A stretch of DNA of 64,000 nt from Candidatus Multivoradales bacterium (lineage in GTDB: Bacteria > Acidobacteriota > Thermoanaerobaculia > Multivoradales > JAHEKO01): assembly GCA_965223855.1 (NCBI GenBank), contig CBDCXM010000009.1, positions 256,001 through 320,000 on the forward strand, written 5' to 3'. This document shows, in pieces, positions 28,814-53,237 of the stretch. The position numbers were made by a program, and so were the translations under genes. Under the pieces are notes generated by a model that had not been told where the DNA came from, ran no database searches, and saw nothing but the letters and a program-made list of their open reading frames with translations. Positions within the stretch are counted from its first letter, which is position 1. Each line of letters opens with the position of its first letter.

Positions 28814-28982
28814 GGTTGGGGGGCTCCGGCGGCCTTCGGCCGGCTGGCCAGCAAGCTGGCCAGAGCGCCCGTGCTTCTGCTCGCCGGGCTTACCGCCCGG
28901 CGAAGGAGGGTTCGAATCCCTGCTTCGCTCGGTGAACTGTCGGGGGTAGGCGAAGGACTCAGCCGCAGCGAATCAACGTTCT
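28814..28982 (-). repeat. Single ~170-bp tRNA-Gln-linked structured module
   Basis: 16-bp inverted copy of the tRNA T-arm at 28908-28923; 10/11 copy of the tRNA 3' end (GGTTGGGGGGC vs GGTTGGGAGGC) 170 bp downstream; three GC hairpins. Confidence 0.6.
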
Positions 28983-29056
28983 TGGTTGGGAGGCAGGGAT
29001 TCGAACCCCGATTCCACGGGTCAGAGCCGTGTGTCCTACCATTGAACGACCTCCCA
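28983..29056 (-). tRNA. tRNA-Gln(CTG)
   Basis: TGGGAGGTCGTTCAATGGTAGGAC ACACGG CT-CTG-AC CCGTG GAATC GGGGTTCGAATCCCTG CCTCCCA ACCA. Confidence 0.95.
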
Positions 29057-29136
29057 ACGGACCACGGAGGGTACCAAGGCGGTCGGGGAGGGTCAATTGT
29101 CAGGGGGCTCGGCTCGCGGGCTATGCTCCCCGCATC

Positions 29137-29920
29137 TTGCCGAGCTTCCGAACCCCCGCACTGCGAGCCTCGATCGTCTGGCACGCCGTGTCTCTCGCTG
29201 CCCTAGCAGTCAGACCCGCCTGGTGGCGCGGGTGGCTCGGCCTGCTGGCACTCAACTATGTCGCCGTCGCCGTCGCCTCGCTCGTGCCGCGCGGACGCTG
29301 GCTCGGTCCTCATCTGAGCAGAGTGGTCGGCAACGCCTCTTCCGTCCACCTGACCTTCGACGACGGTCCAGATCCCGGAGGTGACGCCGGCCGTCCTCGA
29401 TCTCCTCGAAGAAGGAAGCGCGCGCGCGACGTTCTTCTGCATCGGCGAGCGGGTGCGTCGCCATCCGGAGATCGCGCTGGAGATCGTCCGTCGCGGACAT
29501 CGAATCGAGAACCACACCGAGCGGCACAGCCCGCTCTTCGCCCTTCTTCTGCCGCCCGCCCTGGGCGCCGAGATCGACGCCGCGCAGCGCTCGATCGAAT
29601 CCGTCGTCGATCGACGCCCGGTCTACCTGCGCGCACCGGCGGGGTTTCGCGGACCGTGGCTCGCCGGCGCGCTCGAGGAGCGCAGACTCACGCTGGTCAG
29701 CTGGACCCGCAGGGCGTTCGACACGACCCGCCGCGACTCGCAGGCCGTCCTCGGCTCCCTGAGCCGCGACCTTGCCGGCGGCGACATCCTGGTGCTTCAC
29801 GACACCGTCGCCGCCGTCGATGAGGAGGGCACGCCGATGGCGCTCGCGGTGCTTCCCGCGCTCCTCGACGAGATCGAGCGCCGCGGCCTCGTCGCCGCTC
29901 CTCTCCCGGAGCCGTCGTGA
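29137..29920 (+). CDS. Polysaccharide deacetylase (CE4) with N-terminal TM segments, +1 frameshift near 29376
   Basis: VHLTFDDGPDP in one frame, then (E)VTPAVLDLL...ATFFCIG...IENHT...LRAPAG...ILVLHD in the next; start uncertain. Confidence 0.8.
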
Positions 29921-50461: not shown

Positions 50462-52486
50462 CTAAACCCTCCGAAGGACCACGAGGGTGACGTCGTCGTC
50501 GAGAGCGCGGCCGCCGGCCCACTGCTCGCACTCGGCCCACAGCCTGTCGACGACCTCGTCCGCCGACCGCCCACCGAGCCCGAAGAAGATCGTCTCCGCC
50601 CGCTCGTAGCCGAGCATCTCGTCGCTGTCGTCGAGCCGCTCGGCGAAGCCGTCGCTCGCGAAGAAGAGCGTGTCCCCCGGCGCCAGCTCCACCCCGCCGG
50701 TAGCGCTCGTCGCACCGAGCATCGCCCCGAGCGGCATCGCCGGCAGCTCGATCGTCTCGACCTCTCCGGCCGCCGCCCGGTAGCAGTAGATCGGCGGCAT
50801 CCCGGCCGAGGCGAGCTCGAGCCGCCCCTCCTCGTAGCGTCCCAGGGTCAGCGCCATCGCCAGCCGCTTGAGGCGCATCTGCTTGAGCACCACGTTGGCG
50901 CGATCGAGCCGTGAACCGAGATCGCCGTCGCCGGCGAGCGCCAGGAAGAGACTCTTGGCCGCGGTCACCATCGTGCCGGCTCGCAGCCCATGCCCGGTGG
51001 CATCCCCGACCGCGAAGGTGAGGGCTCCGTCCTTCGACTCGAGGAAGTCGTAGTAGTCGCCACCGACCTCGGTCGCCGTCTCCATCCGTGCCGCGATCTC
51101 GAGACCCGGGTGCTCGGGGAGCGCTCGCGGCAGCATCGAGAGCTGCAACTGGCGCGCCTCCTCGAGCTCGGCGGCCAGCAGCTCGCGCGCCACCTCCTCC
51201 TTGCGCGCCCGGCGTTCCTGCTCGAGCTTCTCCTCGGAGAGCCGCTCCACCTCCTCGAGACGTTCGCGCAGCTCGCGCTGCGTACGAGCGAAGTCGAGCG
51301 CCAGGTAGATCGACATTGACAGCAGCAGGCCGATCAACGAGAAGAAGGGTACGAGCGTCGTCAGGAACCGGGTGGTCGGCAACGTCCCGAGGAGCGCAAG
51401 CACCCCGATCGTGAAGCCGGCGCCGAAGGAGATCACCCCGGCCCCGAGCACCGCGCTCCCGGGACGTCGCTGGAGCATCGCCAGCACCACCACCCGGATC
51501 ACCTCGAGGCTCGACGCCAGCATCGTCAGGAAGACCGCCTGCTGCGACCCGGCGACATCGAACCACCCCCACAGGGCGAGGGCGACGCCCAGGATCGCCA
51601 TCCACCGCCAACGCCGTGGCAGCGGGTCGTAGAAGACGCCGTAGACGAAGCGCACCGCAAAGAGGCCGAACCAGATGCCGCAGACGTTCATCGCCGGTTC
51701 GGAGAAGAGGACGAAGCGCGGATCCGCGACCTCGTACTTGTAGAAGAGCAGGAACGCCAGCGCCGCCGCGCACGAACAGACGAGCCCGAAGAAGAGGTTC
51801 TCGCGGAACCGCGGCCAGAAGACGAAGAGCAACGAATGGAGGACGGCGAACGAGAGGTAGACGCCGCTGAAGAGCGCCGCCCACCCCCGCGCGCTGCGCG
51901 AGGCATTCGTTTCGGCCGCAGCGACCGCCGTGCTCTCGCCGAGGCGAGCCGTGAACCCGGCGCGCCAGCCGATGGCGTGGAATCGCTGCCATTCCGGGTT
52001 GGCGTAGCGCACCGCCAGCAGGTGGCGACCCGGCTCTAGCGTCAGGTGCAACGCGTGAGGCTGGCGCCGCGGCTCCTTCCCGCCGTCGACCGTCTCGCCG
52101 TAGCGCGCCAGCAGCTCACCGTCGAGGTAGACCTCGGTCACGCCGTGGAGCAGGAGATCGAGTGCCAACGGTACCTCCGCGAGCCCAGGCGAGACGTCCA
52201 GCCACTGCCGGAACCAGCCCTCCCCCTCCCAGTCCTCGGGAGTCCCCGACGCCCGCAGATCCGGAGCCACGTCCGGCCAATCAGAGTCATCGAACGCCGG
52301 CGCCGCCCACGCGGAATCGTCCCCGGCCTGGAAACGCCAGGAACCGAGGGTCAACGAGCCACGCTCTAGAAGCCCTTCGTCCAGCACCACCGCCTCGGCG
52401 CCCGCCACCCCCGCGCACAGGAGCGCCGCCAGCAGCACCGCCCCGGTGCTCCGGCACCCCAACCGCCGCAGCCGATCCCCGCTCAT
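50462..52486 (-). CDS. Membrane-bound SpoIIE/PP2C phosphatase with extracellular sugar-binding-like domain and 7TM region
   Basis: WRFQAGDD..WA.P.FDDSDW, several TM segments, EVGGDYYD, GDATGHG, SDG, DDVT. Confidence 0.87.
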   Translation of the reverse strand: MSGDRLRRLGCRSTGAVLLAALLCAGVAGAEAVVLDEGLLERGSLTLGSWRFQAGDDSAWAAPAFDDSDWPDVAPDLRASGTPEDWEGEGWFRQWLDVSPGLAEVPLALDLLLHGVTEVYLDGELLARYGETVDGGKEPRRQPHALHLTLEPGRHLLAVRYANPEWQRFHAIGWRAGFTARLGESTAVAAAETNASRSARGWAALFSGVYLSFAVLHSLLFVFWPRFRENLFFGLVCSCAAALAFLLFYKYEVADPRFVLFSEPAMNVCGIWFGLFAVRFVYGVFYDPLPRRWRWMAILGVALALWGWFDVAGSQQAVFLTMLASSLEVIRVVVLAMLQRRPGSAVLGAGVISFGAGFTIGVLALLGTLPTTRFLTTLVPFFSLIGLLLSMSIYLALDFARTQRELRERLEEVERLSEEKLEQERRARKEEVARELLAAELEEARQLQLSMLPRALPEHPGLEIAARMETATEVGGDYYDFLESKDGALTFAVGDATGHGLRAGTMVTAAKSLFLALAGDGDLGSRLDRANVVLKQMRLKRLAMALTLGRYEEGRLELASAGMPPIYCYRAAAGEVETIELPAMPLGAMLGATSATGGVELAPGDTLFFASDGFAERLDDSDEMLGYERAETIFFGLGGRSADEVVDRLWAECEQWAGGRALDDDVTLVVLRRV

Positions 52487-52572
52487 CTCTCGCCAGTCCT
52501 CCCCCGACACTACGGCATCACCACCTCCGGGGTTCGGTCCCGCCGCAGCCGGCCGATACACTCAGCCGCCGC

Positions 52573-52662
52573 GGAGGGGTGGCTGAGTGGTCGAAAGCAC
52601 TGGTCTTGAAAACCAGCGACCGTGCAAGCGGTCCGCGGGTTCGAATCCCGCCCCCTCCGCCA
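52573..52662 (+). tRNA. tRNA-Ser(TGA)
   Basis: GGAGGGGTGGCTGAGTGGTCGAAAGCA CTGGT CT-TGA-AA ACCAG, long variable arm, GCGGGTTCGAATCCCGC CCCCTCC GCCA. Confidence 0.96.
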
Positions 52663-53237
52663 CCGAGGTTCGAGTCCGCATCTCGACGACGAGAGTTCTC
52701 ATCGAGCGGGATTCGAACCCGCCGTGAGCGAGCGGTGAGCGAGCGAACCGAGAACAACGGGCTCATCGGCCGGCGAAGCCGGACGACCGGCTTCCGAAGG
52801 AAGACGGGCCCCTCGAATCCCGCCCCCTCCGCCATTGAGGTTCGGACCGGCACTTCGACGACGATGGTTCTAGTCGAGCGGGATTCGAACCCGCCGTGAG
52901 CGAGCGGTGAGCGAGCGAACCGAGAACAATTGGGCTCCTTGGCCGGCGAAGCCGGACAACCGGCTCGCAACGCGAGACGGGCCCTCTAATCCCGCCCCCT
53001 CCGCCACTGAGGTTCGAGCCCGCATCTCGACGACGAGAGTTCTCGTCGAGCGGGATTCGAACCCGCCGTGAGCGAGCGGTGAGCGAGCGAACCGAGAACA
53101 ACGGGCTCATCGGCCGGCGAAGCCGGACGACCGGCTTCCGAAGGAAGACGGGCCCATCGAATCCCGCCCCCTCCGCCATTGAGGTTCGGACGCGCACTTC
53201 GACGACGACAGTTCTCGTCGAGCGGGATTCGAACCCG
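52663..53237 (+). repeat. Tandem array of three 172-bp tRNA-Ser(TGA)-linked modules plus a partial fourth
   Basis: Units 52663-52834, 52835-53006 and 53007-53178 each end AATCCCGCCCCCTCCGCCA and contain GCGGGATTCGAACCCGC; partial unit 53179-53237. Confidence 0.93.

Follow-up and report, generated by a model that had tools for sequence, protein, structure and literature searches.

Structured repeat units behind tRNA genes of an acidobacterium very probably belong to the tRNA-linked repeats known from Escherichia coli

Background

What kind of element are the structured units of 162–172 bp that directly follow three tRNA genes in the genome of a Candidatus Multivoradales bacterium (Acidobacteriota; assembly GCA_965223855.1, 4.52 Mb in 9 contigs)? 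The stretch under study, C9:256001-320000, is a 64,000-nucleotide piece of contig CBDCXM010000009.1 (C9) with a G+C content of ~68%, and is referred to here as the window. Each unit carries an inverted copy of a T-arm and ends with a direct copy, more or less well preserved, of the preceding tRNA's 3′ end. A preliminary description, made from the letters of the window, had held this layout to be unexplained by anything known. That view has to be given up, as the tRNA-linked repeats (TLRs) of Escherichia coli have the same layout, the three units behind serX included. In substance, the match to an already described repeat family that the description itself had said would speak against its proposal is thereby found. 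The window modules are very probably TLR-type elements, the class represented in Rfam by the RtT RNA. A new architecture is not supported; the TLR class is already known and is found here in a new phylum. What may be new is the two-helix form of the antisense arm, the covariation, the re-tailoring of units on four kinds of tRNA, the breadth across phyla and a second, shorter module.

The first description of TLRs dates from 1978 and is due to Egan and Landy, as quoted in PMC8144298. Strain K-12 harbors 22 TLRs at ten loci, with 1–5 per locus, in tRNA or rRNA operons (Rudd 1999, quoted in PMC8144298). [quoted passage not shown] Transcription with the upstream gene and processing to a discrete RNA have been shown for rtT and RrB, and the authors proposed the repeated 3′ end as an RNase E processing signal (PMC8144298). 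Three 5S-linked TLRs bind Hfq and CsrA in vitro, and the 19 tRNA-linked ones were scored as unlikely CsrA binders (PMC8144298). TLRs are described as ‘thus far’ without a known function, a stringent-response claim made for the tyrT unit in 1991 having been withdrawn in 1994 (PMC8144298). Our search of the literature found no such repeats described outside E. coli and its near kin, the older literature being mostly out of reach; the term itself came up in PMC8144298 alone, and rttR is named in passing in two further papers.

Units at the three loci

ARAGORN made four tRNA calls in the window, and Rfam at gathering score backs three of them (Gln, Ser, Ser), exactly the genes that had been described beforehand as all carrying modules. 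They are tRNA-Gln(CTG) at 28983..29056 on the minus strand (Rfam tRNA 60.4 bits, extent 28986-29056), tRNA-Ser(GCT) at 38282..38373 on the minus strand (Rfam extent 38285-38373) and tRNA-Ser(TGA) at 52573..52662 on the plus strand (Rfam 64.8 bits, extent 52573-52659). At all three loci the units stand directly 3′ of the tRNA gene and in the same orientation, one behind Gln, three behind Ser(GCT) and 3.3 behind Ser(TGA). On the tRNA strand the CCA is followed by a spacer of 43–62 nt, the inverted T-arm, GC-rich hairpins and the direct copy of the tRNA 3′ end. The loops of these hairpins are dominated, on the tRNA strand, by GNA triloops closed by C:G, in agreement with what had been read from the sequence earlier. 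Tandem Repeats Finder (TRF) reports a period of 169 x 2.6 at 37771-38219 and a period of 172 x 3.5 at 52641-53237. The exact inverted T-arm copies of 16, 20 and 17 nt were recovered as first reported, at offsets +59, +62 and +43 for Gln, Ser(GCT) and Ser(TGA), respectively.

The single Gln-linked unit, of core type A1, occupies 28814..28982 on the minus strand, and its 16-nt inverted T-arm at +59 corresponds to 28908..28923. Its 3′-end copy (28814-28823) is decayed to an exact remnant of 7 nt (9/10 by eye). A direct 3′-end copy at a period of 162–172 bp, originally attributed to all three genes, is therefore retained for Ser(GCT) and Ser(TGA) and lost for Gln.

Behind tRNA-Ser(GCT), on the minus strand, unit 1 (core type A2) lies at 38120..38281, unit 2 at 37949..38119 and the more decayed unit 3 at 37780..37948, the last being 82.8% identical to unit 2. 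The 20-nt inverted T-arm is found at +62 (38200-38219) and +232 (38030-38049), and unit 3 holds a copy with one mismatch (37860-37879). Unit 1 has an exact 20-nt copy of the tRNA 3′ end at +141 (38121-38140). The 3′-end copies of units 2 and 3 are mismatched. That of unit 2, which ends ...CTCTCCGTAC and is without CCA, was accepted by the search within 4/16 differences, and the same search missed that of unit 3, which differs by ~2/16 by eye. R2, a covariance model of A2 units, scores 111.3 bits on unit 1 (38120-38222), which belonged to its training set, 108.6 bits on unit 2 and 92.4 bits on unit 3.

Behind tRNA-Ser(TGA), on the plus strand, unit 1 (core type A3) lies at 52663..52834, unit 2 at 52835..53006 and unit 3 at 53007..53178. 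A partial fourth unit at 53179..53237 ends just past its inverted T-arm, which places the array end 6 bp from the stop codon of a convergent 499-aa open reading frame (ORF; 53243-54742, minus strand). The 17-nt inverted T-arm recurs at +43 (52706-52722), +215 (52878-52894) and +387 (53050-53066), with a cut copy at the array end (53222-53237). The direct 3′-end copy spans 22 nt at +150 (52813-52834) and +494 (53157-53178) and matches in 21/22 positions at +322 (52985-53006). The units follow an ABAB′ pattern, units 1 and 3 being 97.7% identical and units 1 and 2 86.2%, while the partial fourth unit is nearest to unit 2 (91.5%). Two DNA runs of a single study, which may be of the source sample, yielded contigs that tile this array without differences, and one of these contigs contains a unit-to-unit joint of 172. 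None of the contigs of either run spans the entire array, and its copy number is therefore provisional.

Direct repeats of a tRNA 3′ end beginning in the T-loop recall the duplications found at att sites, since T-loop-type att sites have direct repeats that start in the T-loop. Could the units then be scars (attL/attR) of decayed integrase-borne islands, or an artefact of assembly? Either origin is exceedingly improbable. Unlike att-site duplications, the repeats enclose no island, no integrase and no other gene, recur as 162–172-bp units with a period of ~170 bp, and hold an antisense arm and a conserved, covarying hairpin core; 0/5 of the Phage_integrase matches of the genome fall in the window. 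As for an artefact, independent contigs tile the array, and the layout also occurs in finished genomes such as that of E. coli K-12.

Comparison with E. coli repeats and Rfam families

In K-12, one 175-bp unit lies between tyrT and tyrV and three 178-bp units lie past tyrV. These units have a degenerate inverted T-arm ~57 nt after the CCA, then hairpins, then a 19-nt 3′-end copy, and the annotated rttR RNA, 171 nt long, begins 8 nt past the CCA of tyrV and extends to that of the first copy. The serX gene is followed by three 181-bp units of the same build, each with a terminator hairpin of its own. The window units resemble them in standing directly 3′ of a tRNA on the same strand, as 1–5 tandem units of ~170–180 bp, in ending with ~19–22 nt of the tRNA's own 3′ end, and in having 40–60 nt after the CCA an antisense T-arm that pairs with the 3′-end copy, along with GC hairpins with GNA loops. 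The 18–19 bp of 3′ identity by which TLRs are defined are present in the Ser(TGA) units (22, 21 and 22 of 22) and in Ser(GCT) unit 1, but not in the Gln unit, and the 1, 3 and 3.3 units of the three loci lie within the range of one to five tandem units. The two sets also differ: whereas the window units carry an exact T-loop complement, the antisense loop in E. coli is degenerate (ATGAGAA); each serX unit has a U-tract terminator and none was seen in the window units; and the hosts differ in phylum and GC content.

At permissive thresholds the Rfam family RF00391 (RtT) aligns over its full model length to four window units with 14.7–18.7 bits. The window units do not reach its gathering score of 45, and a whole-genome RF00391 scan did not rank them. 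In the RtT consensus a 5′ GgGaaGGAU pairs with AUCCuuCcC of the 3′-end copy and ...CCACCA is left as a tail; a closing helix of this type with a single-stranded acceptor/CCA tail is present in most minimum-energy folds of the window units. Another covariance model, R1, was built from 22 gammaproteobacterial Ser-linked units only. It detects 10 units at 5 loci in K-12 and gives 50.5–56.3 bits on the four E. coli tyrT-locus units. On the window units it gives 20–30 bits, as against 21–23 for bare tRNA 3′ halves, and a congeneric unit reaches 40.8 bits with a weak alignment of the core. Given the low RF00391 and R1 scores, the match between the window units and RtT is one of architecture and class definition. 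Within the Gammaproteobacteria, E. coli Tyr-linked cores stripped of their arms match the Ser-linked cores of Thioalkalivibrio and other members in blastn searches (E 5e-15, 83% over 71 nt), which together with the R1 scores indicates that one core family serves different tRNAs with re-matched arms.

RrA, RrB and RrF are E. coli TLRs located in rrnA, rrnB and rrnD between two terminators. They likewise finish with 18 bp taken from the upstream gene's 3′ end, and are transcribed by read-through and processed (PMC8144298). However, they are linked to 5S rRNA rather than to a tRNA and by eye show no clear antisense arm. Hairpins H4–H6 are common to the E. coli 5S-linked unit and the tyrT units, again by eye. 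In the rrnB TLR, located between 5S rRNA and murB, copies of the 5S 3′ region can be seen by eye to flank the hairpin cassette, with GAGTAGG... before it and AACTGCCAGGCAT after it, and the cassette looks as if placed within a duplicated 5S 3′ end.

The Rfam family RF02223 (sX4, a Xanthomonas small RNA) matches the window at 52564-52740 with 35.4 bits (E 1.5e-5), its gathering score of 70 remaining unreached. Its model consists of a tRNA-Ser and the first ~60–80 nt of trailer, i.e. the start of a unit only, and ends in a G-rich ...GGGGGGUGAGA; by our reading, this 3′ end is the antisense T-arm. No Rfam tRNA match was obtained on the window units at gathering score. We also considered the units as inverted tRNA-Ser pseudogenes, with an acceptor 5′ strand, a variable-arm-like hairpin and a T-arm on the opposite strand, and rejected this because there is no acceptor 3′ strand and no tRNA-model match, and because the same cores occur at the class I tRNA-Gln.

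Folding and covariation

Most minimum-energy folds of single units close by a helix of the 5′ part of the inverted T-arm with the 3′-end copy. Within this helix, P1, the partner of the 5′ part is the T-loop/T-stem 3′ strand of the copy together with the initial acceptor bases. In A2-type units a further helix, P2, is formed by CGAAC, the 3′ part of the inverted T-arm, with the internal GTTCG of a conserved ACAGTTCGC motif. The gammaproteobacterial alignment has the equivalent pairing of TCGAACC of the inverted T-arm with an invariant internal GGTTCGA, which was outside the search pattern by which these units had been collected and is present in 22/22 sequences. By pairing with both the 3′-end copy and the internal GTTCG, the inverted T-arm forms the continuous 5′ strand of two stacked helices. 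P1 and P2 rebuild the sequence of the tRNA T-arm region as one stacked duplex, in which the partner strands are the two halves of the sense T-arm, separated by the remaining hairpins. What remains of the acceptor 3′ strand forms a single-stranded tail, which in the Ser(TGA) units includes the CCA.

Covariation across homologs had been set beforehand as a test, and was measured on 29 distinct hits aligned to R2. Double changes are found in 22/31 pairs (5/10 in P1 alone), a result that bears out what the preliminary description had expected. Paired cells make up 93.0% of this alignment compared with 74.3% in shuffles, and the covariation score of 0.358, versus 0.091 when shuffled, was reached by 0/500 shuffles. 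The alignment was fitted to R2 and is hence biased towards the structure of the model, yet slid controls did not exceed 0.055 and so speak against a pure artefact of the fitting. An alignment in which related units from other genomes were added to the A2 units was dropped, as its first hairpin was structurally inconsistent. The structure of the units is under selection. Within the R2 set one and the same core carries Ser, Gln, selenocysteine (SeC) or Tyr 3′ ends, and the antisense arms follow these, including the variant T-loop of SeC.

These data bear on whether the units might be a neutral by-product, functionless as an RNA or as an element, left by tandem duplication and gene conversion at the tRNA 3′ end and the quasi-palindromic T-arm. 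Decay would be expected of such a by-product and is seen in the Gln unit, in Ser(GCT) unit 3 and in truncated last units. The occurrence among relatives is patchy, with R2 matches (A2 type) in 12/45 genomes of the family, and no function is reported to have been found in E. coli since 1978 (PMC8144298). Compensatory changes in 22 of the 31 pairs, arms re-matched on four kinds of tRNA, and a layout that recurs in many phyla (76 of the 121 matches listed in the scan described below have the 3′ copy) nevertheless make a neutral origin very unlikely.

Specificity and exchange of cores

The fit between units and tRNAs was assessed by comparing each tRNA 3′ end with each 250-nt trailer in the genome, using 45 tRNAs after 5 dubious calls had been dropped. 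Over the 1,980 non-cognate tRNA/trailer pairs the longest inverted match averages 6.7 nt. There are 23 non-cognate inverted matches of at least 14 nt, every one of them in a unit-bearing trailer. The Gln trailer matches the T-arm of Ser(CGA) over 17 nt and its own over 16 nt, while the Ser(TGA) trailer matches its own T-arm over 17 nt and that of Asp over 16 nt. Because T-arms resemble one another, the inverted T-arm is only weakly specific for its own tRNA; it is mainly the direct copy, with a few acceptor-derived bases flanking the T-stem, that confers specificity. The idea that each module is tailored to its own tRNA accordingly applies to these parts and only weakly to the inverted T-arm.

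The three loci had also been thought to share little other primary sequence, which turned out to be incorrect. The Gln core matches a Ser(GCT)-linked unit of a congeneric genome with 79% identity over 97 nt, and so does the Ser(TGA) core with 76% over 127 nt, so that Ser(GCT) alone among the three window loci has a different core. Elsewhere in the genome, the insert in a composite unit (Ser(GGA) unit 2) is 88% identical to the Gln core over 99 nt, and Gln(CTG) and Ser(CGA) have 19 nt and the A1 core in common. Between the arrays of Ser(GCT) and Ser(GGA), whose tRNA 3′ ends are identical and which are separated by ~497 kb, the spacers are 76–79% identical. Cores have been exchanged between loci.

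Composite units were seen at C9:789700-790052 and C9:790874-791025, with lengths of 214 and 236 nt. In these an A1-type core is fused into an A2-type unit at a common CGCCGGAGG-like hairpin sequence, and they look like products of recombination between unit types.

Occurrence in the genome, the family and other bacteria

Units of this type stand behind all four tRNA-Ser genes and Gln(CTG) of the genome, and with the shorter module described below behind five more tRNAs, the presence at other tRNAs that the preliminary description had called for is confirmed. A whole-genome search with R2 gave 7 matches, 7/7 of them at three tRNA-Ser loci. Dispersed, tRNA-independent copies, as of repetitive extragenic palindromes or bacterial interspersed mosaic elements (REP/BIME) or of an IS200/IS605-type miniature element, were not seen in this search. 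Relatives of the same family have units at the same tRNAs, with core type and copy number varying between genomes, and congeneric genomes have different cores at the same tRNA. Of the copy-number variation and empty sites that had been proposed as a sign of mobility, the former is thus present among relatives, but no pairs of empty and filled sites were seen. A Gln-linked unit with an intact 3′-end copy occurs in another genus of the family (unpublished genome G005 only).

Species-representative genomes were scanned for a tRNA-Ser 3′ end followed, after 40–70 nt, by GGGATTCGAACCC, which returned at least 117 stretches. Among the matches listed are Gammaproteobacteria (Thioalkalivibrio, Ectothiorhodospiraceae, Chromatiaceae, Spiribacter and Luteibacter), Alphaproteobacteria, Polyangiaceae, Clostridia, Oscillospiraceae, Coriobacteriia and Actinomycetes, as well as Acidobacteriota, Dadabacteria and Saccharibacteria. 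A direct 3′-end copy (≤2 mismatches in 16) lies within 260 nt in 76/121 of the matches listed, and the median CCA-to-CCA period among them is 184 nt; 18/121 have two or more copies, and 4/121 fall within a tRNA gene that is convergent. An intrinsic terminator (hairpin and T-run) often separates the inverted T-arm from the tRNA CCA in Gammaproteobacteria and Firmicutes. At this position the high-GC window units have hairpins but no T-run.

It is conceivable, if speculative and on balance unlikely, that TLRs are a bacteria-wide class of hairpin cassettes whose antisense arm and 3′-end copy are re-tailored to each stable-RNA gene, and which serve as a recombination substrate or as antisense control. 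Were this true, tRNA-gene biology would have a conserved layer that has so far been overlooked, and TLRs would not be passive repeats. If, in addition, the fold is the working form, it would be either a recombination substrate that moves the cassette between tRNA genes or a built-in antisense control of read-through pre-tRNA. Whether or not this holds, the occurrence of the layout in many phyla, the compensatory changes and the re-matched arms make a curiosity of E. coli a comparative problem with hundreds of natural variants, and give testable predictions on processing sites, on an antisense effect on precursors and on the route of recombination.

Processing and recombination of the arrays

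Taken as a whole, the explanation towards which we lean is that the units are TLRs that act as co-transcribed, processed trailers and form recombining arrays. The processing model in particular, in which co-transcribed trailers are cut at each repeated 3′ end and arrays are resized by unequal recombination, is offered more tentatively. According to it, the units would be transcribed together with the tRNA, or through read-through. A helix resembling the T-stem and inner acceptor stem would present each repeated 3′ end for the 3′ cleavage and trimming that the tRNA itself undergoes, and the tRNA 3′-maturation nucleases would cut after each copy to release the tRNA and unit-length structured RNAs. 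The ~20-nt direct repeats would be the sites of unequal homologous recombination or gene conversion, by which arrays are lengthened or shortened and keep their match to the tRNA, and cores would be carried between loci by ectopic recombination among tRNA genes that resemble one another at the 3′ end. The ABAB′ pattern of the Ser(TGA) units fits unequal recombination or gene conversion. An RNA that ends in CCA and in which the antisense segment pairs with the downstream copy was one of three options raised in the preliminary description; it has a precedent in the E. coli rttR/RtT RNA, but the Ser(GCT) copies are without CCA.

Several points weigh against this processing model and the reading built on it. 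The Ser(GCT) copies end in GTAC (two) and GCCG (one) and those of Ser(GGA) in GTAC (one) and GCCG (one), so that 0/5 of these copies end in CCA and the term ‘CCA-ended’ is not true of all units. Where a terminator stands ahead of the unit, as in Gammaproteobacteria and Firmicutes, units would be made only by read-through. Judging by the alignments above, the window cores have no demonstrated homology in sequence to RtT, and for this organism we infer transcription, processing and the recombination route. An antisense arm that invades the T-arm of its tRNA would be predicted to harm and not to serve tRNA maturation. Finally, selection on one RNA strand normally leaves an excess of G.U over A.C pairs, and the helices have none, with 21 G.U versus 20 A.C in the model-fitted alignment and 22 versus 20 in a cruder scan of 87 units.

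The even counts mean that the strand under selection, and whether it is RNA or DNA, is not shown by the data. A tRNA control for this comparison was invalid, as ARAGORN brackets standard pairs only (70 G.U/1,106 pairs). Folding energies of 74 units likewise showed no difference between strands, the sense strand being the more stable in 37/74 (Wilcoxon p 0.67). In the minimum-energy folds G.U pairs number 232 on the antisense strand versus 102, a surplus that we ascribe to composition and loop bonuses because the counts in conserved stems are even.

Even counts of G.U and A.C would be compatible with a cassette that acts as DNA, in which a small hairpin element passes from one stable-RNA gene to another, either as single-stranded DNA in folded form or through site-specific recombination. 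Once folded, the strand would mimic the T-arm duplex of the target, and a trans-acting HUH enzyme or tyrosine recombinase would act on it, in a manner likened to integron attC sites or the attP of CTX phage. P1 and P2 do copy the T-arm sequence as a stacked duplex, and the C:G-closed GNA triloops that dominate the loops are very stable in DNA. The occurrence of one core behind different tRNAs, with the E. coli hairpins H4–H6 also behind 5S rRNA, and of differing cores at the same tRNA in congeneric genomes would be expected of such an element, and arrays tend to finish with an inverted T-arm. Candidate enzymes are encoded in the genome: Pfam Y1_Tnp (PF01797, HUH transposase-like) has 16 matches of 24–37 bits in open frames of ~250–840 aa, and there are one RVT_1 and five Phage_integrase matches. 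Candidates for the recombinase or reverse transcriptase whose co-occurrence was to be checked are thus present at the level of the genome, but none of these matches lies inside the window, no Y1_Tnp match is linked to an array, and no array has a linked recombinase gene. Moreover, no activity is known to act on the TLRs at their ten loci in E. coli K-12, the 5S-linked unit has no clear antisense arm by eye, neither empty/filled-site pairs nor target duplications were seen, and the junctions of the composite units resemble homeologous recombination rather than clean insertion. We regard a DNA-level cassette as unlikely.

A further possibility is that the units act in cis as antisense trailers. 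The arm would pair with the T-arm and 3′ strand of a read-through tRNA and hold the precursor inactive, while the downstream 3′-end copy would compete for the arm; the yield of mature tRNA would thereby be tuned, or read-through marked for decay. When the tRNA and unit 1 are folded jointly, the antisense arm is predicted at all three loci to pair with the tRNA's own T-arm, with 24–40 tRNA-to-trailer pairs and a predicted minimum energy 8–21 kcal/mol more stable than that of the parts folded apart. The shorter modules place a cognate-specific complement 22–27 nt after the CCA (~+14 at Gly), and the terminators between tRNA and unit in other taxa would suit a sensor of read-through. Such energy minima, however, ignore co-transcriptional folding, fast cleavage after the CCA and the tertiary structure of the tRNA, and tandem copies 2 to 4 have no adjacent tRNA. 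As complementarity to the tRNA follows automatically from pairing with the copy of that tRNA, it is no independent evidence for an antisense trailer, and we consider this role distinctly improbable, more so than that of a DNA-level cassette and less so than a neutral origin.

A shorter module and other features of the genome

A second, shorter module of ~100 nt was found behind five tRNAs of the genome. It follows tRNA-Glu(TTC) as 4 units (C9:2762257-2762656), Glu(CTC) (C9:~456890-456985), Tyr as 2 units (C8:~294210-294412, on another contig), Gly(TCC) as 2 units (C8:~282160-282391) and Leu(CAA) (C9:3100804-~3100900). The order is an antisense segment, a long hairpin and a short direct copy (GAATCCC type). 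In four of the five tRNAs, a complement of 13–15 nt of the T-stem 3′ strand and acceptor lies 22–27 nt after the CCA. At Gly(TCC) the complement is located at ~+14 with one mismatch, and an exact 16-nt copy including the CCA follows at +130, in the second module. The shorter module is strongly cognate-specific, with 13–16 nt matched to its own tRNA versus 8–11 for the best other tRNA. Exact-pattern matches to the tRNA-Glu module occur in 3/45 genomes of the family, and R1 does not detect the module behind tRNA-Glu. On the opposite strand the shorter module resembles a small TLR unit in inverted orientation. In a complete genome of the family, the trailer of tRNA-Ser(TGA) consists of ~190-bp repeats, each made of two shorter, inverted-type modules, which indicates that the type of module is not fixed per tRNA.

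In genome annotation, TLR units can be mistaken for coding ORFs or for tRNAs of the opposite strand. An ARAGORN call of ‘tRNA-Val(aac)’, 90 nt, at C9:791116-791205 (plus strand) is read as false, since it corresponds to a TLR unit, located between the genes for Ser(CGA) and Ser(GGA), taken on its opposite strand. The fourth ARAGORN call of the window, ‘Pro tgg’ at 51544-51629 (minus strand), lies inside long ORFs, has its anticodon at position 39 and is without an Rfam match; it too looks false.

In the region C9:526261-533741 an orphan T-arm (C9:528433-528449) is identical to that of tRNA-Arg(CCG), from which it is 5.2 kb distant. A Y1_Tnp match (526261-526527) is located 2 kb beyond the orphan T-arm, and a weak Phage_integrase match (532309-532848) lies between the orphan T-arm and tRNA-Arg(CCG). 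It is possible that a small island has integrated here, with duplication of an att site.

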